From: Pseudomonadota bacterium
GTDB lineage: Bacteria > Bdellovibrionota_B > Oligoflexia > Oligoflexales > CAIYRB01
Reading direction: 5' to 3'
Assembly: GCA_031416315.1 (NCBI GenBank)
Contig: JANOTL010000201.1
Location: forward strand, 15,685-79,684
Length of the DNA: 64,000 nt
Shown: positions 7,858-27,677 of the stretch, one piece after another
How positions within the stretch are numbered: position 1 is the stretch's first letter
Layout of the letters: the number at the start of each line of letters is the position of its first letter
The notes under the pieces: model-generated
Seen by the model: the letters and a program-made list of their open reading frames with translations, nothing else
Database searches by the model: none
What the model was told of the DNA's origin: nothing
Translations under genes and position numbers: made by a program

Positions 7858-10800
7858 TGGCCGAGGAAGCGGATCGTGGCGGTGCCAATATAGGTTCCGA
7901 GAGTGCCAGTATTGGCCGCCTGCCGGATCTGAATGTAATCGTTCTGATTTAATTTAATGAGGGTTTCCAAGCGTACTTTCCCGAGGGAAGGGGTCTGCTT
8001 GGAGACAAACCCTGTTGCGTTGTTGTTGAGCGTGAATTCCACCAAGTGGTTCGTCGTGCTACCGGATTGAAATTCAACATCTGCGGTGATCTCGTAATAG
8101 CCCGCCCGTGGAGCCACGAGCCTATCGGTGAAGGAAGCAGTGTTGTGGAAATCGTCAGTGTCGAAGCTTTCGGTCCCGAATAAAATAGGTGATGCCGTCG
8201 ACGTCGCAGCGACGCCCGAGGTCATGCCCACGGACGCGCCGAGGAACTTGCCGAGCTGCACGCCGTCGCTCACGACCTGGCCTTTCACAATCAAAGCCCC
8301 CTCTGCCTGCAGCGCCAGCATGCGAACCGGCGCTCCGACTGTATGTGGACTAGGTACAGTCCCGTTATACCCGCGGGAAAGGCCTGAAAAAGTCGAGCCT
8401 GACACGGTCGAGTAGTAAATCGCTTCGCCGTCGATCATCAAGATTCCGGCCGGAGGAAATCCGGTCCCTGATGCCAACGTCAGTGTGGCGATTGTGCTGT
8501 CCATCGCCACACTCAAAGTGGAGCCATCGGGGGGCGTCGCGCCGACCTTTGCTGTTCCAGCAACGTCAAGCTGCGCTGACGGCGAGGTCGTCCCGATGCC
8601 GACGTTCCCACTGGCCGCCGCAACCATGATGGGCGCGCCGCCTCCATCCTCGACTAGCAATCCGTAGTTCGATCCGCCTTTCACGTGCAGCCGCGCCATC
8701 GCCGAAGGAGCAGAGGTACCGATCCCGACGGCTCCGTTCGAGTCGATGACCATCCGCTCTGTCAGCGACGGGGTGCCGTTGGCTGCCGTGCTAAAACCTA
8801 ACTTCGATCCGGCGCTTCCACTACTGAATGCCTCAGTAGCCGTCGCGGTGATCTCAGCGCCGGTGTTGAAAGCCAAGCTGCCGCGGTACCCTGCGAACGA
8901 ATGACTACCGAGGACGTCGCCGCTTGCCGCCACAGCGCCTGCACTGCGACCTCGACGAAGCATCAAACTCGGCGCAACGGTGTTATCGATGCGCCCAATC
9001 GTCAAATCACCGCCCTCGACGTGCAAACGAGATTCGGGAGCGGTCGTTCCAATGCCGAAGTTGCCCGAACGATCGAGCACGGCCAGCGTCGACGCCGTAT
9101 TCCGAGCATCGACGTCGGTCTCGAACTTCAGCTTCGTGCCCGCGTTTGTGATCCGGAAGTTCTTCAGATCGGCGGCTTGGAACGTGTCGCTGAGAAGCAA
9201 TCCGGTACCAGCAGCGGTATCGCCGGTGATCGCGAAAGCCCCGAGAGGACTTGCCTCAATCGCCCCGTTCCCCGCTAAGACGAGCCGTGCAACGCTGTCC
9301 GTTTTGAGACTGAGCGAGTAGTTGCCCACGGTCCCCATGTACGAGTTGAGGCCGAAGAGAGTGTTAACGCCCGGTTTGCCGTTGAGTTGAGTCTGGATGT
9401 CGCTCGTCACAGCGCCGAGGTAGCCGAACTCGGCAGCGGAGACGGTGCCGTCGCCGATTTTGGTCGCGGCGATCGCTGCGGTCGCCGAAATGTCGTCGTT
9501 CGTGATGGTCAAGTCGAGAATTTTGGCCGTCGTGACCGCGTCGCTAGCAAGCTTCGCCGCCGTGACGTTCGAATCAAGAATCTTCACCGTCGTGACCGCG
9601 TCGCTAGCGAGTTTTGCCGCCGTGACGTTCGCATCAAGAATCTTCACCGTCGTGACCGCGTCGCTAGCGAGCTTCGCCGCCGTGACGTTCGCGTCGAGAA
9701 TCTTCACCGTCGTGACCGCGTCGGAGGCCAAGTCGATGGCGGCAACGCTCGAATCCGTGATTTCGGTGCTTCCGACGACCGCAAGTTCGGCCAAGGCGCC
9801 TAGCCCCAGGCTCGCGCGACCCGTCGCCGGAGTCAGGCCGGTCGCGCCGCCGTCCCACTTGAGCCGATCTGTATGAGCGGTATTCCAGTTCGCCGAGCTG
9901 TTCGTCAAGATGCCGTAAGTATTCGCCGCCGTCCGAACCATGATGCCGTCGGTCCCGAAATCCGCGTCCATCAACGCGCCCGTCGCCGTGACGCTCGACG
10001 TCGTCACGACGTTCGCGATGTCGACGGCCAGCGTGACGTCGCCGCTCAGCGCGCCGCCCGTGATCCCGGTGCCGTTGATGATGCCCGTCACATCGCCCGC
10101 GCCGGCCGGAGTCGCCCAGCTCATCACGCCGGCCGCGTTCGTCGTCAGATACTTGCCGTCCAGCGGCGCCGCGGGAAGTGTATACGAAACGTCAGCGGGC
10201 AAAGCAGCCGGCCCCTGCAGCGAAACGTAGTTCCGCGTCCCGGCCCCGTCATTGTCCCGGAATTTCACCGCGGCATCCGCGACGACTTTCGAGACCGTGA
10301 CCTCACCCGACGCGTCCCGCTGGACGATCGTTCCGACTGCGTTCGAAGTAGTCGCTCCAGCAACCGCAGTCACGGTGTTCGCAACTTCCAAGGCGCTCTT
10401 GCCGCCGACGTTGTCGGCGGTCGTCGCGTTCGCAGCCGTGGTCGCGTTCACCGCGGACGCCACCGCGCCCTGCGACTTGAGCTTGAGAAACCCATTGCTC
10501 CACTCGAAATCGTCAGAATGGATTGGCACGCGTAACGCCAATGGCATCATCGAATAACGCTGGCGCTTATAAGCGAAGCCATTCGTCACGTCCTTAACCT
10601 CGACCCAAACTTCTTGGGCGACGTCCGGGAAGATCAAGGCGAGGTCGAGATCGCTCAGCTCGGTGAAATCGACCTGAAAGAAACCGTCCGGCGTGTTGAT
10701 CTCGCGGACGATGGGGTCCGGCAAGATCGGGGCGCTGCCGGTCGCCGCGCGATAGAAGCGAAACTCCAGCTTCACCGTGCCCGTAAGCGGCTTATCGTCC

Positions 10801-10922
10801 GACTCGCCCAAGCGACCCGCGTAGGACAACGGCACTGGCGCAGCTTGCACGACGCTTCCGAAGAGCATGCCGGCGAGCGCCAACACCAAAACGGTGTGCT
10901 TGCAGCCAAGAGTTCTCGACAT
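7854..10922 (-). CDS. Secreted tail-fibre-like surface fibre/adhesin with a C-terminal C1q/TNF-like head (hypothetical)
   Basis: 1022 aa with a signal peptide (MSRTLGCKHTVLVLALAGMLFGSVVQA/AP). It has four 20-aa tandem repeats (DAVTTVKILDANVTAAKLAS) and three copies of a fibre-type motif (GNFGIGTTAPESRLHVEGG; GAVGIGTSAPSAMARLHVKGG; GNVGIGTTSPSAQLDVAGT). The terminal ~130 aa carry a G-Y-Y-E-I...V pattern reminiscent of C1q/BclA heads. Confidence 0.7.
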   Translation of the reverse strand: MSRTLGCKHTVLVLALAGMLFGSVVQAAPVPLSYAGRLGESDDKPLTGTVKLEFRFYRAATGSAPILPDPIVREINTPDGFFQVDFTELSDLDLALIFPDVAQEVWVEVKDVTNGFAYKRQRYSMMPLALRVPIHSDDFEWSNGFLKLKSQGAVASAVNATTAANATTADNVGGKSALEVANTVTAVAGATTSNAVGTIVQRDASGEVTVSKVVADAAVKFRDNDGAGTRNYVSLQGPAALPADVSYTLPAAPLDGKYLTTNAAGVMSWATPAGAGDVTGIINGTGITGGALSGDVTLAVDIANVVTTSSVTATGALMDADFGTDGIMVRTAANTYGILTNSSANWNTAHTDRLKWDGGATGLTPATGRASLGLGALAELAVVGSTEITDSSVAAIDLASDAVTTVKILDANVTAAKLASDAVTTVKILDANVTAAKLASDAVTTVKILDSNVTAAKLASDAVTTAKILDLTITNDDISATAAIAATKIGDGTVSAAEFGYLGAVTSDIQTQLNGKPGVNTLFGLNSYMGTVGNYSLSLKTDSVARLVLAGNGAIEASPLGAFAITGDTAAGTGLLLSDTFQAADLKNFRITNAGTKLKFETDVDARNTASTLAVLDRSGNFGIGTTAPESRLHVEGGDLTIGRIDNTVAPSLMLRRGRSAGAVAASGDVLGSHSFAGYRGSLAFNTGAEITATATEAFSSGSAGSKLGFSTAANGTPSLTERMVIDSNGAVGIGTSAPSAMARLHVKGGSNYGLLVEDGGGAPIMVAAASGNVGIGTTSPSAQLDVAGTAKVGATPPDGSTLSVAMDSTIATLTLASGTGFPPAGILMIDGEAIYYSTVSGSTFSGLSRGYNGTVPSPHTVGAPVRMLALQAEGALIVKGQVVSDGVQLGKFLGASVGMTSGVAATSTASPILFGTESFDTDDFHNTASFTDRLVAPRAGYYEITADVEFQSGSTTNHLVEFTLNNNATGFVSKQTPSLGKVRLETLIKLNQNDYIQIRQAANTGTLGTYIGTATIRFLGH
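9501..9725. repeat. In-frame tandem repeat, 60-bp unit, about 3.7 copies, inside the fibre gene
   Basis: The units 9531-9590, 9591-9650 and 9651-9710 are near-identical (cgtgaccgcgtcgctagc.ag.tt.gccgccgtgacgttcg..tc.agaatcttcaccgt). Partial copies flank them on both sides. Confidence 0.95.
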
Positions 10923-10941: not shown

Positions 10942-11874
10942 TTATTCGCCCGGCGTGACGTATAGCGCCATCCCGGTCGAAATCTGCATCTTCGGACCCT
11001 GTACGCGCCACGGCGTCAGCTGCACGCCAAAGCCTTGGAAACCCTGCAGTCGCGCCGGCTCGCCTTCGCCGTAGCTCAGGAGCGCCGGCCCGCGCATCAT
11101 CGCCCGCACGATTTTCGCCTTCGGAGCCGGCTCGGCGCCCGTCTCGACCTCTTTCGGCGCTTCGGCGACGAGCTTCTCGGTGAATGCCGCCTGAAACGTC
11201 CCGAAGTAGCGCGTGTCGAACGACACTTTGCCATTTTCGATGGTGAGATCAGCGCGCGAGAACATGCCGCTGAACTCGCGTCCGAGCTCCGCTTTGAGGA
11301 CGCGATAGACTACGACAACGCGAGCATAAGGGTCGTCGCCGTCGTCGAGGCGCAGCCCGTTGCCTTCGCTCGGCAGATCCAAGGCCACCGTGAACGGCAC
11401 CGTCGCATCCTGCGAGACCGCGGATTGAATCGAGACCGCGGCGCTTGAGGCAGTGAACGTCGTTTGGATGCCGAGGATCTCGGCCGTGTTGCCGACGGCC
11501 AACTGCACGTCCGCCGGCTCCATGCTGATTTCCGTGTCGATCGCGAGCGCTCCCGGCGGAAACGAGATTTGCGTCCCGGCGATCGAGCTGCCGGCGGCCG
11601 CCGCGACGACCTGCGTCAAATTGCTTGCAGAGCTGACGGCACCCTTCGTCTTCTCGCCCTCGGTCGTCGTTGCGATCGCGACCGGGCTTCCGGCTTCCGG
11701 CGCGGGCTTCGTTGGCTCCGTGACGGCCGGCGCCGTTTCGATGACGGCGGCGTCTTTCGGCGCGCTTCCCGATTGCTTCAGAAACGCCGGACCCTTCATG
11801 CATGCAGTCACCTGCATCGCAGCGATGATCGCAGCGAGCCGGACTACGTTCGGGCTCTTGGTCCTAAACTTCAT
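10942..11874 (-). CDS. Hypothetical lipoprotein, first gene of the fibre operon
   Basis: The start at MKFRTKSPNVVRLAAIIAAMQVTAC gives a lipobox. The 5' 37 codons of the track ORF are unlikely to be coding. GGGAG lies 9 nt upstream of the ATG. The stop is 19 nt before the fibre gene start. Confidence 0.65.
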   Translation of the reverse strand: MKFRTKSPNVVRLAAIIAAMQVTACMKGPAFLKQSGSAPKDAAVIETAPAVTEPTKPAPEAGSPVAIATTTEGEKTKGAVSSASNLTQVVAAAAGSSIAGTQISFPPGALAIDTEISMEPADVQLAVGNTAEILGIQTTFTASSAAVSIQSAVSQDATVPFTVALDLPSEGNGLRLDDGDDPYARVVVVYRVLKAELGREFSGMFSRADLTIENGKVSFDTRYFGTFQAAFTEKLVAEAPKEVETGAEPAPKAKIVRAMMRGPALLSYGEGEPARLQGFQGFGVQLTPWRVQGPKMQISTGMALYVTPGE

Positions 11875-11993
11875 GCTTTGAGAAACTCCCTGATCTTTCG
11901 CTGAGATCGGAAATTCCCAAGGCAGCTTGAGGTCATCCCCTAAAAACCTAGAAATTCGGGGGGGCTTGGCGCGCAAATGAGCCATCGGCGGGA

Positions 11994-12283: not shown

Positions 12284-13147
12284 CTACGACTTCGGCGTCG
12301 CCAGTCCCGCTTCCTGGAGCGCCCCCGGCCACCCTTCCACCGAGAGCTCGGATCCCGCGTGCGAGGCTTGTGAGCGCGTCGCCAAGCGCAGCGCCCGCAT
12401 GACGTCCGCCGCGTCTTCCGCCCGACTCAGGAGGTATGTCAGATGGAGCCATCGCCGCTCGTTCCCTGGAGCTTGAAAGGTCGCTTCTACACTCCGACGG
12501 ACGCCGTCCGGACGCAAGCGCTCGATGGTCGTCGCATGCGGCAGCTGATCGCGCACGCCGCTCACGACGCGCCCGGGCGCCGCCACCGATTTGATCGAGA
12601 GCAAGAGCCCGTCGAGGATCAAGGCCCGCGCTTCGCGCTTCGGATCGCACGGCACCGTCAGATCGAGGCCGTAAGCGCGGCTCATGAGCTCGCCGAGCAC
12701 CATCGGCTTGCCGAAAGCCAAGGCCCCGAGCTTCGAATAAAGCTCCTCCGCCTCCGCCCCGGCTTCGTTCACCTGGCCGAAGATCAAGATATCGTCCTTG
12801 CCGTCTTTCTCAGCGCTCTCCCGCTCAAGCGTGACGCTGTCTGTTCCGTGACGCGCCAGGCGCCACGTTCCCTGCGGTAATGGCACCGCGAAATCGGGCT
12901 GCACCGCGAGCCATTGCATCGGCCCGACGGGCGCTTCGGCATCCGGCGAGCCTTGCGTTCCGGACAGCGGCAGCACCAGCGCCAACCGCGCTTTGTCGTC
13001 CGGCGTGCGCGCGACTTGCGCCTGGATGTCGGCGCGGAGCGCGCACACCGTCGCCTCGCGCCCAGGCACCGTCGCCAGCGAGAAGATCGTGAAAGCCACG
13101 AGGGTCACGACGATCGACAAAAGGGCTAAGCCGATCACCTTCACCAT
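12284..13147 (-). CDS. Hypothetical N-terminally membrane-anchored protein
   Basis: 287 aa with one N-terminal TM helix (MVKVIGLALLSIVVTLVAFTIFSLA). Codon bias looks coding. I do not recognise a family. Confidence 0.6.
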   Translation of the reverse strand: MVKVIGLALLSIVVTLVAFTIFSLATVPGREATVCALRADIQAQVARTPDDKARLALVLPLSGTQGSPDAEAPVGPMQWLAVQPDFAVPLPQGTWRLARHGTDSVTLERESAEKDGKDDILIFGQVNEAGAEAEELYSKLGALAFGKPMVLGELMSRAYGLDLTVPCDPKREARALILDGLLLSIKSVAAPGRVVSGVRDQLPHATTIERLRPDGVRRSVEATFQAPGNERRWLHLTYLLSRAEDAADVMRALRLATRSQASHAGSELSVEGWPGALQEAGLATPKS

Positions 13148-13246: not shown

Positions 13247-13708
13247 ATGAACGAGTCCGATTTTTACAAGTCCATCGAGCGGTTCAATCAGATCTATCGC
13301 CTCCCGCTCCCGGAGCGTCCCGAGCTTCTGCCGGTCGAGCGCATCGAGAATTTCCAGGACATCCTCGCCGAAGAAGTCGAAGAAGGTGCCGACATCAGCG
13401 CGAAATACCGCGAGGCCCTCGCCGCCGCGAACGGCGCGCCCGTTCCCGACGACGTCCGCCTCGCCGTTTTGACCGACATGGCCGATTGGCTGGGCGACAT
13501 CGTCGTTTACTGCGCCAGCGAAGCCCGGCGGTGGGGCTTACCGCTCGACCGCGTGCTCAACATCATCATGGACTCGAACTTCTCGAAGCTCGACGCCGAG
13601 GGCCGCCCGATCTACGACGAGCGCGGCAAAGTGATGAAGGGCCCGCACTACTGGAAGCCCGAGCCGAAGATCCGCGAGGTGCTGGCGAGTGAGATCGTCG
13701 AGTCCTGA
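13247..13708 (+). CDS. MazG-like all-alpha nucleoside triphosphate pyrophosphohydrolase family protein
   Basis: The start is at MNESDFYKSIERFNQ. It has an E-x2-E-E motif (ILAEEVEEG) and a D-x2-D motif (DMADWLGDIVVY), typical of the MazG/HisE-like fold. Confidence 0.55.
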   Translation: MNESDFYKSIERFNQIYRLPLPERPELLPVERIENFQDILAEEVEEGADISAKYREALAAANGAPVPDDVRLAVLTDMADWLGDIVVYCASEARRWGLPLDRVLNIIMDSNFSKLDAEGRPIYDERGKVMKGPHYWKPEPKIREVLASEIVES

Positions 13709-13732
13709 GGGGCGAAAAGCTTGGCGCCCCCG

Positions 13733-14737
13733 ATGAACGACCGCAACGCTTGGTTCGGCGCCGTTCTCGCCACCACGCTGATGACCGTCGGCGCCGTCGT
13801 CGCGGCGCTGGGCGGTGGCCACGGCGGCCTTCCGCTCGTCGTCACCGCCCTCGTCCTGATCGGCTACGCCTTCCCGTACTCGGCGCTCACGTTCGGCCCC
13901 GCGGCGGACTCCTTGAAAGACGGCTTCGAGGATCGCTGGCGCAACGTCGCCCTCGGCGGCGTCTTCCTGTTCGCGCTCCACTTGGTCTATGCCGTCGGCA
14001 CCCAGACCTTCTCGCTCTCCGCCGCGGGCCGCCTCTTCGGATTCATCGCCGCGCCGATCGCCCTCGCCTTCGCCGCGCGCAACCGTGCCCGCCCGAGCTG
14101 GCTCGATCTCCTCGCCGTCGCCTGTGTCTGGCTCCCCTTCGACACCGGTCACCTCAAAGGCATCTGGGCCTGGCCCGCGGGCGACGGCGCCTACATTCTT
14201 AATACGGTCCTCGCCATCGACCTCGCGGCCCTCGTCTTCATCGGCGCGCGCGGCATCCGCGACGTCAAGCTCCGGTTTCATCTGAGCGGCGCGGACGCTC
14301 TTTTCGCACTCGGCATGCTCCTCGCGTTCATGGCCGTCGCCATCCCGTTCGGGCTCGCCACCGACTTCGTCCAATTCAACCCGCGCTTGGGCGACGCGGC
14401 GAAGCTGATCGGCACGCCGCTCGGCATCTTCTTCTTCATCGCCGTCCCCGAAGAGCTGCTCTTCCGCGGGCTCGTCCAAAACATCCTTGAGAAACGCCTG
14501 CGCCGCCCAAATCTGGCGCTCGGCCTCACCGCCGTCTTCTTCGGCCTCACCCACTTCAACAACACGCCGTCGCCCGACTGGCGTTACCTCCTTCTCGCCT
14601 CGATCGCCGGAGTCGTGTACGGCCTCACCTACCGCAAGACGAAAAGCCTCCTCGCCCCGGCGCTCGTGCATGCCGCCGTCGACACCATCTGGGTCCTTTT
14701 CCTGATGAATCCTGCAGTCCACGGAGGCGTCCGATGA
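13733..14737 (+). CDS. CPBP family intramembrane glutamic endopeptidase (CAAX protease-like)
   Basis: A polytopic protein with the three CPBP motifs: EELLFRG, FGLTHFNN and HAAVDTIW. The start is ATG 13733 or TTG 13721. Confidence 0.8.
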   Translation: MNDRNAWFGAVLATTLMTVGAVVAALGGGHGGLPLVVTALVLIGYAFPYSALTFGPAADSLKDGFEDRWRNVALGGVFLFALHLVYAVGTQTFSLSAAGRLFGFIAAPIALAFAARNRARPSWLDLLAVACVWLPFDTGHLKGIWAWPAGDGAYILNTVLAIDLAALVFIGARGIRDVKLRFHLSGADALFALGMLLAFMAVAIPFGLATDFVQFNPRLGDAAKLIGTPLGIFFFIAVPEELLFRGLVQNILEKRLRRPNLALGLTAVFFGLTHFNNTPSPDWRYLLLASIAGVVYGLTYRKTKSLLAPALVHAAVDTIWVLFLMNPAVHGGVR

Positions 14738-15861
14738 AACTCGAGACTCTGCTCGTCCACGGCCATAAAAGCGCGTCGTTCGAGGAAAAGGACGTTGCCC
14801 CCGCGCTCCATCTCAGCACCACCTTCGAGCGCGAGCGCGACGGCACTTACCCCGAAGGCTATTCCTACACGCGCCGCGAGAACCCGAACCGCTCGCAGCT
14901 CGAGGCCGCCCTCGCCGCGCTCGAAGGCGGCGCCGGCGCCGCTTGCTTCGCCTCCGGCTCCGCCGCCACCTCGGCCCTGTTCCAGGCGTTAAAATCCGGC
15001 GATCACGTGATCGCACCGAACGACGCGTACTACGGCACCGGCGTCATCATCCGCGACTTCGCGCGTTGGGGGCTCACCGCCGACTTCATCGACATGGCCG
15101 ATCTCACCGCCGTCGAGCGCGCGGTGAAGCCTGGGAAAACCGCGCTCGTCTGGGTCGAGACGCCCTCGAACCCGCAGATGCGCGTCACCGACTTAGCCGT
15201 CGTCGCGAAAATCGCGCACAAAGCCGGCGCGCTCGTCGTCGCCGACAACACCGTCGCGACGCCGATCCTCTGTCGCCCCTTCGCGTTCGACGTCGATTTC
15301 GCGATGCATTCCACGACGAAATACGTCTCGGGCCACTCCGACGTCCTCGGCGGTGCCGTCGTCGCCCGCGAAGCCTCGGCCACTTGGGAAAAGATCCGCG
15401 CGGCTCAGCATTTCGGCGGCGCCGTCGCCTCGCCCTTCGACTGTTGGCTCGCCCTCCGCGGCCTCCGCACCATGGCGCTGCGCGTTCGCGAGCAAAGCCG
15501 AAGCGCCTTGGCCCTCGCCCAGTTCTTGGCCACTCACCGCCACGTCGAGCGCGTCTACTACGCCGGCCTCCCCGAGCACCGCGGCCACGCGCTCGCGGCG
15601 AAGCAGATGACGGCCTTCGGCGGCCTCCTCTCTTTTACCGTGAAGGCGGGCAAGGAGGCCGCGTTCAAAGTCGCCGGCGCCGTGCGTCTTCTCACGCGCG
15701 CCACGAGCTTGGGCGGCATCGAGACCCTGATCGAGCACCGTGCCTCCATGGAAGGCCCCGGCACCAGCACGCCGGAAAACCTCCTGCGCGTCTCCGTCGG
15801 TCTCGAGCATGTCGACGATCTCATTCAGGATCTCGGCCAGGCTTTGGCTTCTCTCGACTAG
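14734..15861 (+). CDS. Cys/Met-metabolism PLP-dependent enzyme (cystathionine gamma-synthase/beta-lyase family)
   Basis: 375 aa containing the PLP-lysine motif HSTTKYVSGHSDVLGG and ETPSNP. Its start makes an ATGA overlap with the upstream CPBP gene. Confidence 0.88.
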   Translation: MKLETLLVHGHKSASFEEKDVAPALHLSTTFERERDGTYPEGYSYTRRENPNRSQLEAALAALEGGAGAACFASGSAATSALFQALKSGDHVIAPNDAYYGTGVIIRDFARWGLTADFIDMADLTAVERAVKPGKTALVWVETPSNPQMRVTDLAVVAKIAHKAGALVVADNTVATPILCRPFAFDVDFAMHSTTKYVSGHSDVLGGAVVAREASATWEKIRAAQHFGGAVASPFDCWLALRGLRTMALRVREQSRSALALAQFLATHRHVERVYYAGLPEHRGHALAAKQMTAFGGLLSFTVKAGKEAAFKVAGAVRLLTRATSLGGIETLIEHRASMEGPGTSTPENLLRVSVGLEHVDDLIQDLGQALASLD

Positions 15862-15922
15862 GCGCCGAAGGCCGCAAAAGCTAGGCAATCCTTGTCCAGC
15901 GCGGCTTTCGCGCCTCTCGGGC

Positions 15923-15942
15923 TATTCTATTAAAGAAGAATA
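15923..15942. promoter_or_regulatory. AT-rich inverted repeat TATTCT-N8-AGAATA upstream of the giant E/R-rich gene
   Basis: Read directly from the sequence. It is an isolated AT-rich island in a GC-rich intergenic region, 23 nt before the ATG at 15965. Its function is unknown. Confidence 0.3.
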
Positions 15943-15964
15943 CCCAGAGCACGAGGCCATTCCG

Positions 15965-18900
15965 ATGAGTAGGGCGAAAGACCCGAAAGATCCCAATGGG
16001 GCGAAGGAGCCGCGGATCGAGATGTTCGCCGATGACGCGGACGATTTCGACGAGAAGGACTTCCTCGCCATCCGCCGCGAGAACCGCAAGGCCGAGGATC
16101 TCCTGAGTCGCGAGCTGGAGAGCCAGCTCCGCGACGCCGAGAGCATCGCCTCAGAGCAGAAGGTCCTCGAGCGTTTCTCCTCCGACCTCGTCCTGCGCGA
16201 GCAAGCCGCGCTGCGCGAGCTCCGCGAGAAGATCCTCGAAGTCGAGGGCAAGACCGCCAAGCCGCGCCTCGCCGAACGCCTCCGCGCCGAAGAGCTCTCC
16301 GCCCAGCACCGCCTCAGAGACCGCATGAACCAGGAGCGCGCCGAATCCGAGCGCCGCGTCGCCCGTCAGATCCAGCTCGAGCGCATCCAGGCGCAAAACC
16401 GCCTCACCGAGCGCATGGCCCAGGAAGAGAAGGCCGCGCGCGAGCGCGAGGCCGCGCAGATCAAGGCGGAAGCCGAGGAATCCGACCGCCGCCGCGCCGA
16501 TAACGCCGACGGCGAGGTCAAGGAGGCCGAAGCCCGCCTTCGCGGCGCGCAGCAAGCGGAGCGCGACGCCGCCGACGGCCGCCTCCGCGCGCAAGTCGCT
16601 CGCGAGCGGCTCGAGATCGAAGAGCGCCTTCGCGAGGTGCTCACCCGCGAGGACAACGAGAGCAAGCGTCGCCTCGCCCGCCAGCTCGCCGACGAAGCCC
16701 AGGCGAAAGAGCGCCGCACGCAGGAAAACGCGGAGCGTGAAGCTGCCGAGTCCCGTCGCCGTCTCACCGAGCGCATGACCGAAGAGCGCCGCCTCGTCGA
16801 GCTTCGCGCCCGCCAGCGTCAGATCGACGAGACCGGGGAGACGACCAAGCGCCTTGCCGCTCAAGCCGCCAAGGAAGACGCTGCCGTCGAACATTGGCGC
16901 AAGGAGCAAGCGCGCCGCGAAGAGATGGAGGCGAAGCAACGCTTAGCCGAGCGCCAACGCAACGAAGAGCTCGCCTCCGAGCGCCGCGTCGAGGACCGCG
17001 TTCGTCTAGAGACCGAAGCCGCCGCCAAACGACGCGTCGTTTACTTCGCCAAAGAGAAAGCCGAATCCGACGATCGCGTCCGGGCACGCCTTGAGATCGA
17101 GGACCGCGAGGCCAAGTCGCGCGACAGCGCTCGCCGCGAGCGCGAGGCCGAAGAGACGCTCCGCCGCGTGGAGGCCCAGCTCGCCGGCGAAGCCGTCGAT
17201 GCCGAGCGCCGTAACGCCCGCCGCCATGAGCTCGAGGCCGAGGGCGCCGCCGCCCGCGCTGCCGACCAAACCAAGAAGGAAGCTCTCGCCGCCGAGGCGC
17301 GTCGCGAAGCCGCGCTCAACACCGAAAAGCGCGAGGCCGATGCGCGCGAGCGCCAACGCCTCGCCGCCGAAGCCCGGGACGCCGACGCCCGCCTCGTCGC
17401 GGCCCAGCTGCTCGAGAAAAAAGCCTCCGAAGAGCGCGTCGCCTTCCGGATGCGCGAAGAAGAGGCGCGGGCCAACGACCGCCGCGACGCTCAACTCGTC
17501 GCCGAGGCCGGGGAAGCGAAAAAACGCTTCACCGCCGTTCTCGCTCGCGAAGAGCGCGAAGCCGAGCTCCGCGAAGCCGCCCGCGTCCCCGCCGAAACTC
17601 AGGAAACCGAGCGCCGCCGCGCCAACGCCCAAGAAGCCGAGCGCCGCTTCGCCGCCGAACGCCAGGCGAAGCGTCTCGACGCCGAGCGCCAAAGCGCCGA
17701 GCGGCGCGTCGCCGCGGCCATCTTGCAAGAGAAGAAGGAAGCCGAGCAGCGCCTGCGCCTCCGCCTCGCCGTCGAAGACCGCGAGGCCGAGCAGCGCCTC
17801 GCCGTCGTCGTCGCGCAGGAGAAGGAAGAAGCCGACAAACGCCTGCGCGACCAGAAGGACCGGGAGATGCGCGACGCGGAGCTTCGCCTCGCCCGCCGCC
17901 TCAAAGCCGAGGCGCGCGCCAACGAAGAGCGCAAGCGCGCCGCCGGCGTCGAGGAGCATGAAGCTTCCGAGTGCCGCGCCGCCACGATGATCGCCCGCGA
18001 GGAGCGCGAAGCGGAAGAGCGCGGCAAGACGCAGCTCGCGCAAGAAGCTCGCGACGCCGCCGAGCGGCTGAAGCTCCGGATGCAGGCCGAAGAAAAGGAC
18101 TCCGCCCAGCGTCGCGACGCGGCCCGCCGCCGCGAGGACGAAGCCGTCCGCGAGCGCGCCGCGAAGGCCAATATCGAGGAAGACCGGCAGGCCGAAGAGC
18201 GCGTAGCGCAGCGCCTCATCGCCGAAACCCGCGAGCTGGAATCGCTGCGCGCCCGCCTCGCCGAGACGGAGGAGCGCTCCGCCGTCGAGCGCCAACGCGT
18301 CCGTCAGGGGAAAGAAGACCGCGAATCCGAGGAGCGCCGTCGCCGCGCCCAAGCCCTCGAAGAAGAGAGCGCCGCCGAGCGCCTGCGCCGCCGCGTTGCC
18401 GACGAGGAAGAGGCCTCGCGCCTTCGCCTCGACGTCCGCCTTCGCGAGGAAGAACGCTACAGCGCCGCGCGGCTGAAACAACAGCTCGCCGAGGAGGAGG
18501 CGGCCGCGAAAAAGCGCCTGACCCAACTCCGCTTGCAAGAGCGCGCCGCCTCCGAAGAACGCACGACCAAGCGCCGCGAGGACGAAGATCTCGCCCGCGA
18601 GCGACGCCTAAAAGCCGGCGCCGAGGCCGAGGCGGAAGAAACCAAGCGCCGCCACCAGGAGCTCTTCGAGACCGAAGAGCGCGAGTCCCGCGAGCGCTAT
18701 GCCGCCGCTTTCCGCGAAGAACGCGAAGAAGCCGACAAACGCCGCAAGGCCCGCCTCAGTGACGAAGCCCAAAAAGCCGCCGATCGCGCGGTTCGCCGCC
18801 AGAAGGACGATCAAGAAGCGTTCAAAAAGCGCCTCACGCTGCAGCTCTCCGTCGAGGAGGAGGAAGCGGCTCGCCGTATGCAGGAGGCCATGGCCGCCGA

Positions 18901-20053
18901 GCAAAGAGAGGTCGACCTCCGCCGCGCCGAGACCGAGCGCGTCTTCGACGAGGACCGCCGCCGTCGCCATGAGCTCACGCTCGAGGCCGAGGCTAAAGCC
19001 GGTAGAGAGCGCATCGCTCGCTTGCAGTCGGAGGAGCTCATCGCCGCCGAGCGCAAGAAGCGCGAGCTACTTCGGCTAGAAGAGGAGGAGGCGAAGATTC
19101 GCCTCGCCAAGGCCATAGAAGACGAGCGCAAAGGCCACGACGACCGCCTCAAGCGCCGGCTCGAAGACGAGGAGCGCGACGCCCAAAAACGCCGTGTCGC
19201 TCGCCTCGAGGTCGAAGGCCTGACCGCGCGCAAGCGCCACGAGGAAGCGCTTTCCCGCGAAGAGTTCGAGTCCCAGCAGCGCATCCAGGATCGTCTCGCC
19301 GACGAGGAAGAGGCCTCGAAGCGCCACGAGGAAGAGCTCGTCGCGCAGGAAGCGATCGCCGCGGAGAAGCGGAAGATGGCGCGCCTAGTCGAGGAGCAAA
19401 AAACGCTCGGCGAGATCGACAAGGTCCGCAAGGCCACGCATCGCAAGCGCGAGGTCGAGCGCATGCAGCTGATCCAGGACCTCGCCCGCCGCGAGCAGGA
19501 AGTCTGGCTCGCCGAAAAAGTGCGCCTCGAGCGCGAGCTCGCGAAAGAGCTCGACGACTCGCAGCGCCAGCACGCCCGCGAGCTGCAGAATGAAGAGCAA
19601 GCGATGCGCCAACGCGTCGCCCAGCGCACCTCGCGCGCGAAAGAGCGCGAAGTTAGCCTGGCCGATCTCGAGCGCGAGCTGGACGAAGCCGATCAGCGGC
19701 GCCGCGAGCAAGCCCAGAAGCTCGCGACTCTCCCGCAGCCCGAGCCGCTAGCGCCGACGGCGGTCCTAGAGCCCACCATCGGCTGCGATCTCGCGCGCGT
19801 CCTCTCCGCCACCTCGCCGAAGATCCTCGCCCAAGAGCTGGCGATGAAGACCGCCGTCGAGGCTTTCGAGCTCCTCGACGACTGCAGCGAGGAAGCGCGC
19901 GGCGTCATCCTGCTCGCCATCAACGAGCCGATGAAAAGCCTCTTCGAAGGCGAGCTCGCGACATCGCCGCGCCTTGCCGCCGCACGGCGCCGCAAGGGGC
20001 CACGCCCGATCGACACCTTCGTCGAAGGGCTCGAACGTCGCTTCACGCGGTGA
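15965..20053 (+). CDS. Giant E/R/A-rich repetitive alpha-helical protein (1362 aa; predicted single alpha-helix or non-heptad coiled coil) with a small C-terminal globular domain
   Basis: The in-frame ATG at 15965 (MSRAKDPKDPNGAKEP...) lies downstream of the metB-like gene. The track ORF start at 15740 overlaps that gene. There is no signal peptide or TM helix. About 1200 aa consist of degenerate AExRLxxxLxxExxE-type repeats. The last ~130 aa are non-repetitive. Confidence 0.85.
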   Translation: MSRAKDPKDPNGAKEPRIEMFADDADDFDEKDFLAIRRENRKAEDLLSRELESQLRDAESIASEQKVLERFSSDLVLREQAALRELREKILEVEGKTAKPRLAERLRAEELSAQHRLRDRMNQERAESERRVARQIQLERIQAQNRLTERMAQEEKAAREREAAQIKAEAEESDRRRADNADGEVKEAEARLRGAQQAERDAADGRLRAQVARERLEIEERLREVLTREDNESKRRLARQLADEAQAKERRTQENAEREAAESRRRLTERMTEERRLVELRARQRQIDETGETTKRLAAQAAKEDAAVEHWRKEQARREEMEAKQRLAERQRNEELASERRVEDRVRLETEAAAKRRVVYFAKEKAESDDRVRARLEIEDREAKSRDSARREREAEETLRRVEAQLAGEAVDAERRNARRHELEAEGAAARAADQTKKEALAAEARREAALNTEKREADARERQRLAAEARDADARLVAAQLLEKKASEERVAFRMREEEARANDRRDAQLVAEAGEAKKRFTAVLAREEREAELREAARVPAETQETERRRANAQEAERRFAAERQAKRLDAERQSAERRVAAAILQEKKEAEQRLRLRLAVEDREAEQRLAVVVAQEKEEADKRLRDQKDREMRDAELRLARRLKAEARANEERKRAAGVEEHEASECRAATMIAREEREAEERGKTQLAQEARDAAERLKLRMQAEEKDSAQRRDAARRREDEAVRERAAKANIEEDRQAEERVAQRLIAETRELESLRARLAETEERSAVERQRVRQGKEDRESEERRRRAQALEEESAAERLRRRVADEEEASRLRLDVRLREEERYSAARLKQQLAEEEAAAKKRLTQLRLQERAASEERTTKRREDEDLARERRLKAGAEAEAEETKRRHQELFETEERESRERYAAAFREEREEADKRRKARLSDEAQKAADRAVRRQKDDQEAFKKRLTLQLSVEEEEAARRMQEAMAAEQREVDLRRAETERVFDEDRRRRHELTLEAEAKAGRERIARLQSEELIAAERKKRELLRLEEEEAKIRLAKAIEDERKGHDDRLKRRLEDEERDAQKRRVARLEVEGLTARKRHEEALSREEFESQQRIQDRLADEEEASKRHEEELVAQEAIAAEKRKMARLVEEQKTLGEIDKVRKATHRKREVERMQLIQDLARREQEVWLAEKVRLERELAKELDDSQRQHARELQNEEQAMRQRVAQRTSRAKEREVSLADLERELDEADQRRREQAQKLATLPQPEPLAPTAVLEPTIGCDLARVLSATSPKILAQELAMKTAVEAFELLDDCSEEARGVILLAINEPMKSLFEGELATSPRLAAARRRKGPRPIDTFVEGLERRFTR

Positions 20054-20910
20054 GCTGGACAGTCGACAAGGAATACCAGTCTCGCCCGCACGCTCGGGGC
20101 GACGCCTGGGTGTTCCGCATCGCCCGCGACGCCGCTTTCTGGGGCCTCTTCGTCGACGAGCAGACGCGCTACAAGACCCGCTTCGAGCCGGGAACCGAAG
20201 CGCATCCTGAGCTCGACGAGATCATCATCTGCCTCGAAGGCCGCTACTGGGTGCGCGTCGGCGACTGGTCCCGCACGCTCTCCCCCGGCGAGGCCGCGCT
20301 CATTCCCCACGGCGTCCAACACGACTCGGGCGTCGCGACCAACCTCGTCGGCATGCACTTCCTCGTACTGCTCTTCCCACGCGCGGCGAACGTCCTGACT
20401 CCCGAGGCTCTCCCGATCCCTCGCGGCGTCGCGCTCCCCCCCGGTGCCCTCTCTTGGTTCCGCGGCGCTTTCCGCCTCCTTCGCGCCACGCCGACGCCAC
20501 TAGGCTTCCTCCCGCTCTCCATCCTGCCCGAGTTCATCACATCCCTTTGCGCGCTCCCGCCTCTTCCCGCCGACACATCGCACCCCGACCCCGTCGTCCA
20601 ACAAATCATCGACCTCCTCGAGCAACCCGAAATCCCTTCGCTCGCGGCACTCGCCGCGCATGTCTCCCTCACGCCTTCGCATTTACAAAAACGTTTCCTG
20701 ACCGCCGTCGGCTGCTCCCCACTCCAGTACGCGCGCGCCTGGCAGCTCGACCGCATCGCGGCGGAGCTCCGCGGCGGCAGCACCCGCCCGCTCGTCGACG
20801 TCGCGACTGACCACGGCTTCAATGACCAAAAGCACTTCCGCCAGCTGTTCAAGCGCCGCTTCGGCCAGGCGCCCGCCTCCTACCGCAAGAACCACCCGCC
20901 CGAAGGCTGA
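20050..20910 (+). CDS. AraC family transcriptional regulator with an N-terminal cupin domain
   Basis: The C-terminal AraC helix-turn-helix is present (SLAALAAHVSLTPSHLQKRFLTAVGCSPLQYARAWQL...DHGFNDQKHFRQLFKRRFGQAPASYRK). The N-terminal cupin is also present (ICLEGRYWVRVGD...ALIPHGVQH). The GTG start overlaps the upstream stop (GTGA). Confidence 0.85.
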   Translation: MSWTVDKEYQSRPHARGDAWVFRIARDAAFWGLFVDEQTRYKTRFEPGTEAHPELDEIIICLEGRYWVRVGDWSRTLSPGEAALIPHGVQHDSGVATNLVGMHFLVLLFPRAANVLTPEALPIPRGVALPPGALSWFRGAFRLLRATPTPLGFLPLSILPEFITSLCALPPLPADTSHPDPVVQQIIDLLEQPEIPSLAALAAHVSLTPSHLQKRFLTAVGCSPLQYARAWQLDRIAAELRGGSTRPLVDVATDHGFNDQKHFRQLFKRRFGQAPASYRKNHPPEG

Positions 20911-24515: not shown

Positions 24516-26498
24516 GTGGCACGACCCAAATCGACCTCTACCTCGGCAGCTGCGAAAGCGGCCGAAGGCGACAGCGACTACCTCCAAAAGGTCAAAAAGT
24601 CGGCGAAGACGATCACCACGTCGAGCACGGCCGAATATTTTTCCAAGAACCTGCAACAGGTCGGCTTCTCCTCCCCCGTCAAAGCGGTCCTGACCACTTT
24701 GAAGGAGGCCGTCGACAACTCGCTCGACGCCTGCGAGGACGCCGGCATTCTCCCGGAGCTTTCGCTCATCATCCACCGGCTCGGGCCGGGGACGCTGAAG
24801 AACACCGACAATATCCGGATCAAAGTCGAGGACAACGGCCCCGGCATCGAGGCCGACGATATCCCGAAGGTTTTCGGCGAGTATCTGGCGTCCTCGAAGT
24901 TCGGCCGCGGCCGCTGCTCCCGCGGGCAGCAGGGCATCGGCATCTCGGCCGCGACGACCTGGGCGATGCAGACCACCGCGCGCGGCGCGAAAGTGATCAC
25001 GAAGCAGAAATCGCAGCGCAAGGCGGTCAGCTGCATCATCGACATGGACCTGAAGAACAACAAGGGCATCGTCCGCGACAAGACGATGATCGAGTGGAAA
25101 GAGCCGCACGGCACCGTCGTCGAGTTCACCCTCGACGGGCGCATCCAGCTGAACGGCGAGGGCGGTCTCCTCACGTATATCCGCGGGACGATCCTCCTCA
25201 ACCCGCACATGACCCTGCATTACGACATCACGGACCACCCGAAAACCAGCGTCGAGCGCGTCACGAACACCGTGCCGCTGATCCCTGAGGCCACCGAGCC
25301 GCATCCGCACACGATGAAGCTCGGCGAGTTCATCTCGCACGCGCGCCTCTTCGGCCGGATGAAGACGCGCGACTGGCTGAAGCGCGGCTTCTCCCGCATC
25401 AACGATCGCGCCATCGCCGACATCCAGAAGGACAAGGACAAGTCGAAGCGCATCGAGGACAAGACCCTCGACGCCTTCATCGACACGATCGCCGACGACA
25501 ATTTCAAGGCGGTCTACGCCGCCATCCAGCACGCCACGTTGCTGCCGCCCGCGACCAACACGGTCATGGCCGTCGGCGAGGACGGCCTGGCCCTTTCGAT
25601 CCGCCGCCTGGGCGACGTCGACTACTTTGCCGTCCTGACCCGCAAACCCGCGATCTGCGACTTCAAACCCGTGCAAATCGAGGTGGCCATCGCGCGCCTC
25701 AAAGAGCGTACGGGCGAGGACACGGACAGCCCCGTCCAAGTTCTGCGCTTCGCCAACCGCGTGCCTCTGCAGTTCGACAAAGCGTCCTGCGCCATCGTGA
25801 AATCTTTGACCTCGGTGCAATGGCGCTCCTACGGCCTGCGCCAGCCGAAGGATTCTCTGCCGCTCGGCCCGTATATCGTCGCCGTCTCGGTCGTCTCGCC
25901 CTTCATCAAATTCAAGAACGCCTCGAAAGAGACGATCGACGCCTCCGACGAGCTCGTCGAGGAATTGCGCCGAGCGCTCATGCAAGCCGGCCAGCGCCTG
26001 TCTCGCTACTTGAAGCGCGAGAACAAGGCCGACGTCCTCGAGCAACGCGTGCAGCACATGGAGCAGTTCGGCCCCGTGTTGATCGAGACGCTCGCCCGAA
26101 TCCTCGAAGCCCCCGACGAGCGCAAGCAGCGCGCCACCGAGGGCCTTTCGAAGATTCTCGAGCGCGACACCAAAGGCCTGAAGAAAGATCTGAAGGACGC
26201 CGAAGGCCGGCTCTCAAGCTACCTCGAGCAGAAAAAGCAGCGCCTTTCGGGCTTCTTCAAGACGATCGAGGCGGAGGAAGAAGAGGCCGAGCGCAAGCTG
26301 AAGGCCGGCGACGACGACGAAGACACGATCGATGCCGAGGCCGAAGAGGTCGAGTCCAAGCCAGCGCCGGCGAAGAAGGCCAAGAAAGGCAAGAAGAGCA
26401 AGGCGGCCGCCGCCCCGGCGCCCGCGCCCGCGAAAAAAGCCGCGCCCGCCAAAAATGCCCCGCCCGCGAAAAAAGCCAAAGCCAAGAAGAAGAAGTAA
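24516..26498 (+). CDS. top6B: DNA topoisomerase VI subunit B (type IIB, GHKL ATPase) with a K/A/P-rich C-terminal tail
   Basis: Bergerat-fold boxes EAVDNSLDA (N box), VEDNGPGI (G1) and SRGQQGIGIS (G2) are present, followed by a transducer-length region. The C-terminus is a coiled-coil/acidic stretch then KKAKKGKKSKAAAAPAPAPAKKAAPAKNAPPAKKAKAKKKK. The start codon is GTG. Confidence 0.88.
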   Translation: MARPKSTSTSAAAKAAEGDSDYLQKVKKSAKTITTSSTAEYFSKNLQQVGFSSPVKAVLTTLKEAVDNSLDACEDAGILPELSLIIHRLGPGTLKNTDNIRIKVEDNGPGIEADDIPKVFGEYLASSKFGRGRCSRGQQGIGISAATTWAMQTTARGAKVITKQKSQRKAVSCIIDMDLKNNKGIVRDKTMIEWKEPHGTVVEFTLDGRIQLNGEGGLLTYIRGTILLNPHMTLHYDITDHPKTSVERVTNTVPLIPEATEPHPHTMKLGEFISHARLFGRMKTRDWLKRGFSRINDRAIADIQKDKDKSKRIEDKTLDAFIDTIADDNFKAVYAAIQHATLLPPATNTVMAVGEDGLALSIRRLGDVDYFAVLTRKPAICDFKPVQIEVAIARLKERTGEDTDSPVQVLRFANRVPLQFDKASCAIVKSLTSVQWRSYGLRQPKDSLPLGPYIVAVSVVSPFIKFKNASKETIDASDELVEELRRALMQAGQRLSRYLKRENKADVLEQRVQHMEQFGPVLIETLARILEAPDERKQRATEGLSKILERDTKGLKKDLKDAEGRLSSYLEQKKQRLSGFFKTIEAEEEEAERKLKAGDDDEDTIDAEAEEVESKPAPAKKAKKGKKSKAAAAPAPAPAKKAAPAKNAPPAKKAKAKKKK

Positions 26499-26501
26499 GC
26501 C

Positions 26502-27677
26502 ATGGCCAAAGCCACCACGACCGCCCGCCGCGCCGGGAAAAAAGGCGCCGAGATCATCGGTCTCGGCAAAGAGCTGTGCGAGAAGATGATGGTCGACCTG
26601 GAGAAGGCGAAACGCCCCATCCTCCAGGCCACCAAGTGCTCGCTCGACAACGCCAACTACTCGCCGACGGTCGGCTACCTGACCCCAGGCAACAAGAAGG
26701 TCTCCTCCGAGCTCAACGTCAGCTCGGTGAAGAAGATTACCCGCGCGATTTTCATGCTGGAGCTCCTCCTCCGCAACGTCGAGATCCAGACGATCAATAC
26801 GAAACGGGAGCTCTACTACGTCGCCAAAGGCTACGTGAAGCACGACCCCAAGCTGAAAGCCCTCGATTTCGGCGATCAGGACGAGTCCGACTCCGTCATC
26901 GACTTCATCTGCGAGATGATGGAGGCCTACCGCGAGGAGCTGAACTGCGTCGCCGACGACCGCGGCGGCCAGACCTACTCGAAGAACCTCGTCGTCGTCG
27001 AGACCGAGTCGGACGGCAACGTCGCCACCATCGACTTAGGCTCTCTCGGTACGGCGCCCTTCCAGCCGAAGAACCGGCCGCAGAACCTCGAGCTCAAGAC
27101 CACCGGCAAGCTCGACTTCTGCATCGTCATCGAGTCGCAGGGCACGGCGAACACGCTCGTCGCCAACGGCTTTACCAAGCGCAACAACTGCATCGTCATC
27201 GGCTCAGGGGGCGTCCCCTCCAACGCCGTGCGCGCCTGGCTCCGCCGGATCCAAGATCAGCTGGGCATCCCGCTCTACTTCTTCGGCGACCTCGACGCCT
27301 ATACGATCCAGAACATCTACCGGACGCTCAAGGCCGGCTCCGCCGCCTCCTTGATCCGCAACTCCGAGTTCTGCGCCCCGGAGGTCCGCTTCCTCGGCGT
27401 CCTCCCCGACGACATCAAAAAATACGACCTCGTCGACTACGCCGTGCGCGAGGCCGACATCGGCGAAGCCCGCGCGCTGAAGAAGGCGAAAGACGCGATC
27501 TCCAACGACCCGTTCTTCAAAGACAAGAAGAACAAGGAGCTGAAAGAGATCCTCGACTGGCTCGTGAAGAACAAGCGCCGCTGCGAGCAGCAGGCCTACA
27601 TCTCCGTCGATCCGCGCGATCCGCTCTGCATGGAGAAGATCCTGATCGACAAGATCAAGAAGAAGGACTTCATCTAG
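26502..27677 (+). CDS. top6A: DNA topoisomerase VI subunit A (Spo11 family)
   Basis: KRELYYV at residues 101-107 is the catalytic-tyrosine context. Toprim acidic residues are present (CIVIESQG and FFGDLDAYT). The 391-aa length matches archaeal Top6A. The gene starts 3 nt after the top6B stop. Confidence 0.88.
   Translation: MAKATTTARRAGKKGAEIIGLGKELCEKMMVDLEKAKRPILQATKCSLDNANYSPTVGYLTPGNKKVSSELNVSSVKKITRAIFMLELLLRNVEIQTINTKRELYYVAKGYVKHDPKLKALDFGDQDESDSVIDFICEMMEAYREELNCVADDRGGQTYSKNLVVVETESDGNVATIDLGSLGTAPFQPKNRPQNLELKTTGKLDFCIVIESQGTANTLVANGFTKRNNCIVIGSGGVPSNAVRAWLRRIQDQLGIPLYFFGDLDAYTIQNIYRTLKAGSAASLIRNSEFCAPEVRFLGVLPDDIKKYDLVDYAVREADIGEARALKKAKDAISNDPFFKDKKNKELKEILDWLVKNKRRCEQQAYISVDPRDPLCMEKILIDKIKKKDFI

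Follow-up and report, generated by a model that had tools for sequence, protein, structure and literature searches.

Within a 64,000-nucleotide stretch of a genome assigned to the Oligoflexia (GenBank assembly GCA_031416315.1, contig JANOTL010000201.1), which as a whole is called the window here, an open reading frame (ORF) on the forward strand encodes a 1362-residue protein that consists largely of a single repeat array. Residues 91-1140, stacked in rows of 15, give 70 contiguous units in one register, with no insertion or deletion over 1050 residues, and these units share the consensus L1-x-x-E4-x-x-E7-A8-x-x-R11-L12-x-x-R15. Judged from this sequence pattern, the protein may be a multi-stranded, right-handed pentadecad coiled coil with a Glu-Arg zipper that sets the register of its chains, and as such it would be a strut or tether of great length or a subunit of a filament. 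The chance that this explanation is correct is put at about even.

The gene and its fifteen-residue repeat

The features on which the argument rests are the following.
15965..20053, + strand: rod-protein gene, from the ATG at 15965 to the stop codon at 20051-20053, which is included; 1362 residues
15953..15956, + strand: GAGG Shine-Dalgarno sequence, or ribosome-binding site (RBS), 8 nt upstream of the ATG, read from the sequence
16235..19384, + strand: array of 70 in-phase 15-residue (pentadecad) repeats, residues 91-1140, delimited by autocorrelation and by stacking in rows of 15

The gene is real and its repetitive part is not an assembly artefact, because an RBS is present, the codon choice is ordinary, the other reading frames are broken and a second assembly is free of indels. 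Specifically, the synonymous codon choice is indistinguishable from that of the neighbouring genes, and the alternative in-frame starts at 15740 and 15809 both fall within the upstream gene for a pyridoxal-phosphate (PLP) enzyme. The antisense and shifted frames hold broken, shorter ORFs of implausible composition, rich in L/G/A/F, S/R or P/S, and the codon-registered antisense frame has GC contents at the three codon positions (GC1/2/3) similar to those of the gene itself. Over 14686-18642, an independent Logan assembly from a public run agrees with the window at 99.95% identity and without indels, and the two differences that it shows in the protein are both conservative (S112T and V541I). 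The ORF described in the initial annotation is thus confirmed, and the frame disruptions that might have marked it as non-functional were not found, either in this second assembly or in P0004, a metagenomic relative of the C-terminus whose frame stays open to the stop.

The composition is also as first described. The whole protein contains 19.3% E, 18.4% R, 16.8% A, 9% L and about 5.6% each of K, Q and D, its net charge is about zero, and the combined fraction of these seven residues is 0.78-0.87 in each 100-residue window between residues 101 and 1200. The Kyte-Doolittle mean over 19 residues peaks at only 1.03 and therefore the protein has no transmembrane (TM) segment and no signal peptide. 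The full-length protein has no Pfam match (E<=0.01) and belongs to no NCBIfam family, in line with the initial remark that no enzymatic motif is recognisable. In addition, the PADLOC and PHROGs profiles, which cover anti-phage defence and phage structural proteins, gave no match.

The motifs of the rod had been called endlessly varied, with the peptide AERLRAEELSAQHRLRDRMNQERAESERRVARQ (residues 103-135) as the example. This description must be replaced by that of a strict period. The residue autocorrelation has sharp peaks at 15, 30, 45 and so on to 105 and nowhere else, and the identity at lag 15 is 0.276, against 0.135 ± 0.010 in shuffled sequences (z = 14). Position 4 of the repeat is E in 68 of the 70 units and position 11 is R in 66. 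Position 8 is A or S in 53 units, position 1 is L, M, V, I or F in 45, and position 12 is hydrophobic in 36, while E, A or R occupies position 5, E or A position 7, and R, Q or A position 15. A DNA pattern that requires both E4 and R11 in 8 successive units matches the gene 34 times and its shuffles 0 times.

The array is old, and its key positions and phase have been kept by selection rather than generated by recent amplification. This follows because identity among the units is only 28% for amino acids and 45% for nucleotides and no super-repeat longer than 15 residues is evident (no convincing lag, the best of 35 reaching z = 3.2), yet E4 and R11 are nearly invariant. Tandem Repeats Finder detects almost nothing in the array.

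A proposed helical rod and its rivals

The apolar positions of the repeat define a seam. L1, A8 and L12 are spaced 4-3/4-4-4, which corresponds to four helical turns per 15 residues and places an apolar side chain on the seam every 3.75 residues. Across the 1050 residues the hydrophobic moment reaches 52.9 at 96° (360 x 4/15) and falls to 3.9 at 100° and to no more than 6 at 94° and 98°. Both the 15-residue period and the apolar positions at 3.75 residues per turn are those of a pentadecad coiled coil. A periodicity above 3.63 residues per turn leads to a right-handed supercoil, the 15/4 case being the pentadecad (PMC8016460), and such quindecads have a right-handed pitch of about 200 Å (PMC3639240). 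A canonical heptad coiled coil was considered and rejected, since the moment at the heptad angle of 102.9° (3.5 residues per turn) is 8.2 against 52.9 at 96°, and the autocorrelation has no peak at lag 7 or 14.

Charged residues account for 51% of the repeat region, hydrophobic residues for 15% and Ala for 18%, and Gly and Pro together make up 1.6%. Opposite charges at i/i+4 are enriched in both directions (acid-to-base, z = 5.5; base-to-acid, z = 4.9) and same-sign pairs are depleted (z = -7.8), while pairs at i+3 are not enriched. Among the i/i+4 partners are E7-R11 and R15-E4', which involve the invariant residues. AlphaFold2 (AF2) models of the monomer are about 90% helix at low confidence, with predicted local distance difference test (pLDDT) values of 57-59, and the single-sequence model of residues 163-1362 (pLDDT 57) is too poor for fold searching. 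The scarcity of Gly and Pro, the i/i+4 charge pattern and these models support the initial proposal that the protein is an alpha-helical rod of great length, cytoplasmic and without enzymatic function. With a rise of 0.15 nm per residue, the array would measure about 157 nm and the whole helical part about 175 nm.

The charges are distributed as regularly as the apolar residues. On a 96° helical wheel, the same side of the seam carries E4, R11 and R15. Summed over the units, the net charge amounts to -69 at position 4 and to +67 at position 11. Acidic residues prevail at positions 2-9 and basic ones at positions 10-15, so that acidic and basic bands alternate every 2.25 nm. In a linear charge correlation, which is one-dimensional and ignores azimuth, like charges coincide at parallel shifts of n x 15 (+0.14 to +0.20) and complementary charges meet at shifts of 7-8 mod 15, or half a repeat (-0.09 to -0.12, visible out to 600 residues). 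The best antiparallel value is -0.15, with E4 opposite R11.

From the repeat, its periodicity and its charge bands we infer the helicity, oligomeric state and handedness of the rod, and with them all of its function. Residues 91-1140 would form one essentially continuous alpha-helix of 70 in-phase pentadecads, each of four turns. Because a seam that recurs every 3.75 residues has to stay buried, the helices would have to wind around one another in a right-handed sense, and this winding would keep the narrow L1/A8/L12 seam covered. The most likely product would be a two-stranded, possibly higher-order, right-handed coiled coil about 155-175 nm long. The E and R bands of two chains would be complementary in either of two arrangements, an antiparallel one that brings E4 to R11 or a parallel one offset by half a repeat. 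An E-R zipper between chains, or between rods, could then fix the register and would thereby account for the absence of indels over 1050 residues. As a strut, tether or ruler, the rod might keep the acidic N-terminal peptide a fixed, long way from the helical C-terminal domain; it might also, or instead, associate side by side with other rods to form a filament. The roles proposed initially, namely cytoskeletal element, spacer or ruler, and scaffold, are plausible candidates.

Several observations weigh against the coiled-coil explanation. Only the three seam positions L1, A8 and L12 are apolar or small, about 3 of 15, and the fourth, position 4 (d), is the charged Glu in 68 of 70 units. The wholly apolar core of a pentadecad (a, d/e, h and l) is therefore not present, and the core is thin for a stable coiled coil. 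Moreover, the composition and the i/i+4 ion pairs would equally stabilise a monomeric helix, the AF2 models are of low confidence, and the charge analysis is one-dimensional. The repeat profile matches no chain in the PDB, which holds no homologue with a solved structure, and the relatives are too few for a test of length conservation. Finally, the genomic context, which consists of housekeeping genes and an AraC-family regulator, gives no functional clue. In favour of the explanation, dimeric coiled coils can tolerate polar side chains at core positions (PMC13580157).

The main rival is a monomeric single alpha-helix (SAH) of the ER/K type, held by intrahelical salt bridges only and acting as a semi-flexible spacer or constant-force spring between the termini. 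The initial annotation allowed for either an SAH or a coiled coil, and the SAH-like part of that proposal stands insofar as the dense opposite-charge i/i+4 pairs with few same-sign pairs, including E7-R11 and R15-E4', are present in a region that is half charged, rich in Ala and poor in hydrophobic residues. SAHs are, furthermore, documented as spacers and springs (PMC4183817, PMC5378345). In contrast, a plain SAH is dominated by E, K and R without a hydrophobic seam and needs no fixed register, whereas here the 3.75-residue seam is coherent at 96° over 1050 residues, E4 and R11 are nearly invariant and indels are absent. Known SAHs are tens to about 200 residues long, not 1050. The charged fraction of 51% also lies well below that of designed and natural SAHs such as the AEEEXXX repeats (PMC5347031). 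A solitary helix is possible on this evidence, if somewhat unlikely.

By analogy with tropomyosin and nebulin, which lie along actin, and with the filamentous microtubule inner proteins on tubulin, the protein could instead be a ruler or side-binder whose 2.25-nm E/R lattice is read by a periodic cytoskeletal or envelope polymer alongside it. The strict register over 70 units and the two invariant charges per unit would suit repeated, equivalent contacts. In P0008, one of the few proteins that share the repeat, a membrane anchor precedes the units and a methyltransferase follows them, and the gene belongs to an O-antigen-type cluster, which is the setting of the WbdD ruler. However, no polymer with a spacing of 2.25 nm or a commensurate value came to light as a partner, the target is not adjoined by any cytoskeletal or envelope-polymer gene, and the net charge near zero argues against nucleic-acid binding. 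A side-binder of this kind is unlikely.

It is more improbable still that the protein is a polyampholyte scaffold, largely disordered or transiently helical, that drives condensates rather than forming a defined rod. The low-complexity, charge-balanced composition and the low AF2 confidence throughout would fit such a scaffold, but condensate scaffolds need neither position-specific conservation nor an exact 15-residue phase, and a sequence of E, R, A, L, K and Q that is nearly free of G, P, S and N has a strong tendency to form helices. A spurious or non-functional low-complexity ORF would agree with the absence of the exact protein from a 15-billion-protein collection, with the many long ORFs of GC-rich DNA and with the similar GC1/2/3 values of the antisense frame, but 4.1 kb of uninterrupted frame with an RBS and native codon choice beside broken frames, conserved positions among units only 45% identical in nucleotides, a C-terminus 70% identical to an in-frame protein of another metagenome and a second assembly with two conservative substitutions and no indels make it the least credible explanation of all.

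Terminal regions, relatives and genomic surroundings

The array is flanked within the protein by non-repetitive or degenerate segments.
15965..16234, + strand: non-repeat N-terminal region, residues 1-90; an acidic/aromatic stretch, FADDADDFDEKDFL, followed by degenerate helical units
19385..19729, + strand: degenerate helical segment, residues 1141-1255, in which the stack loses the E4/R11 signature; helices in the AF2 model
19730..19774, + strand: Pro-rich linker, residues 1256-1270, LPQPEPLAPTAVLEP; prolines at 1257, 1259, 1261, 1264 and 1270; AF2 pLDDT <50
19775..20050, + strand: small, all-helical C-terminal domain in the AF2 model, residues 1271-1362 (about 90 residues), without family assignment

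The acidic N-terminus of about 60 residues noted initially is borne out by a net charge of -6 over residues 1-60. Tracing the two ends, as had been suggested, was productive only at the C-terminus: the N-terminal region (residues 1-90) has no Pfam match at E<=10, whereas P0004, a 148-residue metagenomic fragment, is 70% identical to the C-terminus by BLASTP and 72% identical over a 150-residue alignment (A1). Residues 1141-1255 are 70% identical to this fragment over the shared part. P0004 is the sole clear relative of the C-terminal domain in the searchable collections, and sequence and profile searches at E<=10 gave no Pfam or PDB match to this domain. The AF2 model of the C-terminal 150 residues, built from the two-sequence alignment, is all-helical with a pLDDT of 59 and too poor for fold searching. 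A resemblance of the C-terminus to FliG or MgtE_N, suggested by eye, was rejected: no FliG_N, FliG_M, FliG_C or MgtE_N match was found in Pfam at E<=10, where the HMMER filters drop weak matches, and the PDB returned nothing relevant. No paralogues of the N- or C-terminal regions were found elsewhere in the window.

The distribution of the repeat was assessed by an exhaustive HMMER search of 1.84 billion cluster representatives with a five-unit repeat profile. The repeat is rare, with only 5 matches among these representatives (P0005-P0009), all of which bear the L1-E4-A8-R11-L12 unit. P0007 and P0009 are short fragments. The remaining three differ in architecture.

P0006 is a 1021-residue bacterial protein with a layout similar to that of the target, encoded on a 6.6-kb contig of 50% GC (Logan contig SRR24948433_554849; locus L082, 1-6610). 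About 20 of its units are well formed, the middle of the protein is less regular, and the C-terminus is helical. The C-termini of the two proteins align weakly and collinearly (BLASTP E = 0.004; hhalign, 78 columns, 23% identity, 15% probability), which is no more than suggestive of homology between the C-terminal domains. The gene overlaps the stop codon of an upstream 241-residue, membrane-anchored ORF and is flanked by two small helical ORFs without a Pfam family, with a response regulator nearby. No counterparts of these neighbours were found in the window.

P0005 has 900 residues and is encoded by a multi-exon gene on a 192-Mb eukaryotic chromosome (CM056742.1 of assembly GCA_029851415.1; locus L203, 5001-17565). 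It carries at least about 17 units of the L-E-A-R-L pentadecad signature in a K-rich version and belongs to no Pfam family.

P0008, a protein of 494 residues from metagenome contig Ga0370204_100091 (locus L204, 5001-6485), combines N-terminal TM helices, 11 units and a Methyltransf_24 domain. Its units are near-identical LASEREQAEQRLKQA pentadecads. The gene lies directly after Wzm/Wzt-like ABC transporter genes and upstream of glycosyltransferases, within a polysaccharide cluster. By analogy, P0008 looks like a WbdD-style chain-length terminator or ruler built on the pentadecad repeat, in which a rigid spacer role of the repeat is plausible. Because these three proteins differ in architecture and setting, the L1-E4-A8-R11-L12 unit looks like a rod-building module that is used in different contexts, whether by descent or by convergence.

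Other searches added little. A word index of 5.8 billion proteins, queried with the C-terminal 222 residues, returned one match, P0004, and not the target itself; it returned nothing with the C-terminus of P0006 and nothing with a 24-row repeat alignment (A3). Its silence is weak evidence of rarity, because it also fails to return P0005 and P0006. Scans of GTDB genomes and metagenome contigs with the C-terminal alignment found no relatives, tblastn against 72,556 plasmid and 50,697 phage records found nothing, and no E/R-rich or 15-periodic ORF occurs in 80 loci around homologues of the upstream PLP enzyme. In a metagenome scan with a degenerate DNA pattern of six consecutive E4...R11 units, no L-E-A-R-L signature appeared among the matches listed. 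Those matches (L083-L202) are dominated by unrelated repeats, for example near-identical tandem repeats and R-P-x-E-V-type pentapeptides (L187, L192, L114 and L130), and the R-P-x-E-V-type ORFs fit the 45-nt pattern because their periodicity happens to agree with it. With none of three possible start codons does the target protein occur in the 15-billion-protein collection, while both flanking genes, from the same 82.9-kb NCBI contig, are present. Repetitive, charged proteins may be under-represented in protein collections, because the target is missing from this one and the word index overlooks P0005 and P0006.

The genes upstream of the rod gene encode a CPBP-family protease and the PLP enzyme, which is of the Cys/Met-metabolism family (Pfam/NCBIfam) and has its closest homologues in Verrucomicrobiota metagenome-assembled genomes at 57% identity. 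Immediately downstream is a regulatory gene.
20050..20910, + strand: AraC-family regulator with Pfam HTH_18, HTH_AraC and Cupin_2; its longest ORF starts at GTG

The rod gene and this regulator may be co-transcribed, because the first possible start of the regulator (GTG) overlaps the stop of the rod gene by 4 nt (GTGA). No terminator-like site was found between them on the + strand. The regulator is followed by a glyoxalase-fold protein, TrhO and an APH-type kinase, and the rest of the window is chromosomal housekeeping, including nuo genes, topoisomerase VI A and B, Mfd, a sulfatase and an alginate lyase.

A few other features of the window may be recorded. Topoisomerase VI subunit B (Topo-VIb_trans, HATPase_c) and subunit A (TP6A_N, Toprim) are encoded at 24516-27677 (+), directly upstream of Mfd at 27688-31251. 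This enzyme is found mostly in archaea and eukaryotes and is seldom encountered in bacteria. A 1022-residue protein at 7854-10922 (-) has an N-terminal, signal-like hydrophobic segment and the internal repeats ASDAVTTVKILDANVTAAKL x3; it matches PHROGs tail-fibre families with E values down to 1e-20 and has no Pfam match. The adjacent ORFs at 10942-11985 (-) and 12284-13147 (-) matched no family. An E/D/G/R-rich ORF of 394 residues at 13538-14722 (-) lies antisense to the CPBP-protease gene at 13721-14737 (+) and is probably a spurious shadow ORF of GC-rich DNA.

Significance and comparison with known systems

If the coiled-coil explanation holds, the protein would represent a new kind of very long cytoplasmic strut or filament among the few bacterial rod proteins. 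It would also provide a clear-cut system in which to study how handedness, stiffness and register depend on 15/4 periodicity, on polar core positions and on charge zippers, and it could yield a long, rigid, designable spacer for protein engineering. More tentatively, it could be the longest and most regular natural right-handed coiled coil yet, about 160 nm of 70 perfect pentadecads in which a Glu4-Arg11 zipper replaces a full hydrophobic core, and thus a previously unrecognised bacterial cytoskeletal filament or long-range tether made of a module that recurs in a few bacteria and at least one eukaryote. This fuller claim is possible but doubtful. Two things limit the significance: the family is very thinly spread, and no cellular process has so far been tied to it. 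The target nevertheless shows how such proteins escape the standard resources, as it has no Pfam or NCBIfam family and is missing from a large protein collection.

The likeness to trichohyalin and the myosin SAHs that was drawn initially holds for a long, charge-rich helix and little beyond it. Trichohyalin and other TPH-domain proteins share with the target a very high content of E, R, K and Q and a predicted long helix. However, the repeats of trichohyalin are irregular and lack the L1-E4-A8-R11-L12 phase, and neither the target nor the eukaryotic P0005 matches Pfam TPH (PF13868) or any other family. The ER/K SAHs of myosin VI and X, INCENP, caldesmon and the KER region of CAF-1 are likewise rich in E, R, K and A, have dense i/i+4 ion pairs and no Gly or Pro, and have a suggested spacer role. 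The target differs from them in its apolar seam, its invariant E4 and R11, its strict 15-residue phase, its 51% charged residues and a length about 5-10 times greater, whereas SAHs have no fixed repeat unit.

The coil of WbdD is a heptad-based trimer. It is the established molecular ruler of chain length in ABC-transporter-dependent O-antigen synthesis (PMC5082667, PMC3482155). It is P0008, and not the target, that resembles this system in its TM helices, 11 repeats, Methyltransf_24 domain and position after Wzm/Wzt-like genes. The target lacks both a membrane anchor and an enzyme domain, and no polysaccharide genes lie near it; the analogy covers the repeat module only.

Among bacterial rods, Scy and FilP of Streptomyces are cytoskeletal proteins that, in work by Walshaw and colleagues in 2010, were reportedly assigned a non-heptad repeat of 51 residues. 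This family is discussed elsewhere (PMC9858780). Like the target, its members are bacterial and cytoplasmic, exceed 1000 residues, consist almost entirely of rod and have a very regular non-heptad periodicity. The Scy period of 51/14 = 3.64 residues per turn would give a nearly straight coil, whereas 15/4 = 3.75 would give a strongly right-handed one, and composition and signature also differ. No similarity was found between the target and Scy/FilP, and the target lacks a DivIVA-like motif and an actinobacterial context.

The closest parallels are the right-handed coiled coils, which the literature presents as extremely rare and of which the known examples are only a few repeats long. The VASP tetramerisation domain is said to have been described as a right-handed pentadecad coiled coil by Kühnel and colleagues in 2004. 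Besides this domain, the known pentadecad cases are found in part of the A/V-ATPase peripheral stalk and in short stretches of trimeric autotransporter stalks (PMC8016460; PMC3639240). Both the VASP domain and the C-terminal half of the A/V-ATPase stalk share with the target a 15-residue period, 3.75 residues per turn and apolar positions of the a/h/l type (PMC3639240; PMC8016460). The peripheral stalk is also similar in its Ala-, Glu-, Arg- and Lys-rich helices, and such stalks act as rigid or elastic struts. In contrast, the core of VASP is fuller, with hydrophobic residues at a/d/e/h/l, while the d position of the target is the invariant Glu. The known pentadecads comprise about 3-6 repeats (45 residues in VASP; 14-16 nm in the stalks), compared with 70 repeats and about 157 nm here. 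They show no detectable sequence similarity to the target, whose repeat profile retrieves no PDB chain. Overall, it is the unusual length, the regularity and the charged signature of the array that distinguish this protein from the known coiled-coil rods with pentadecad periodicity.

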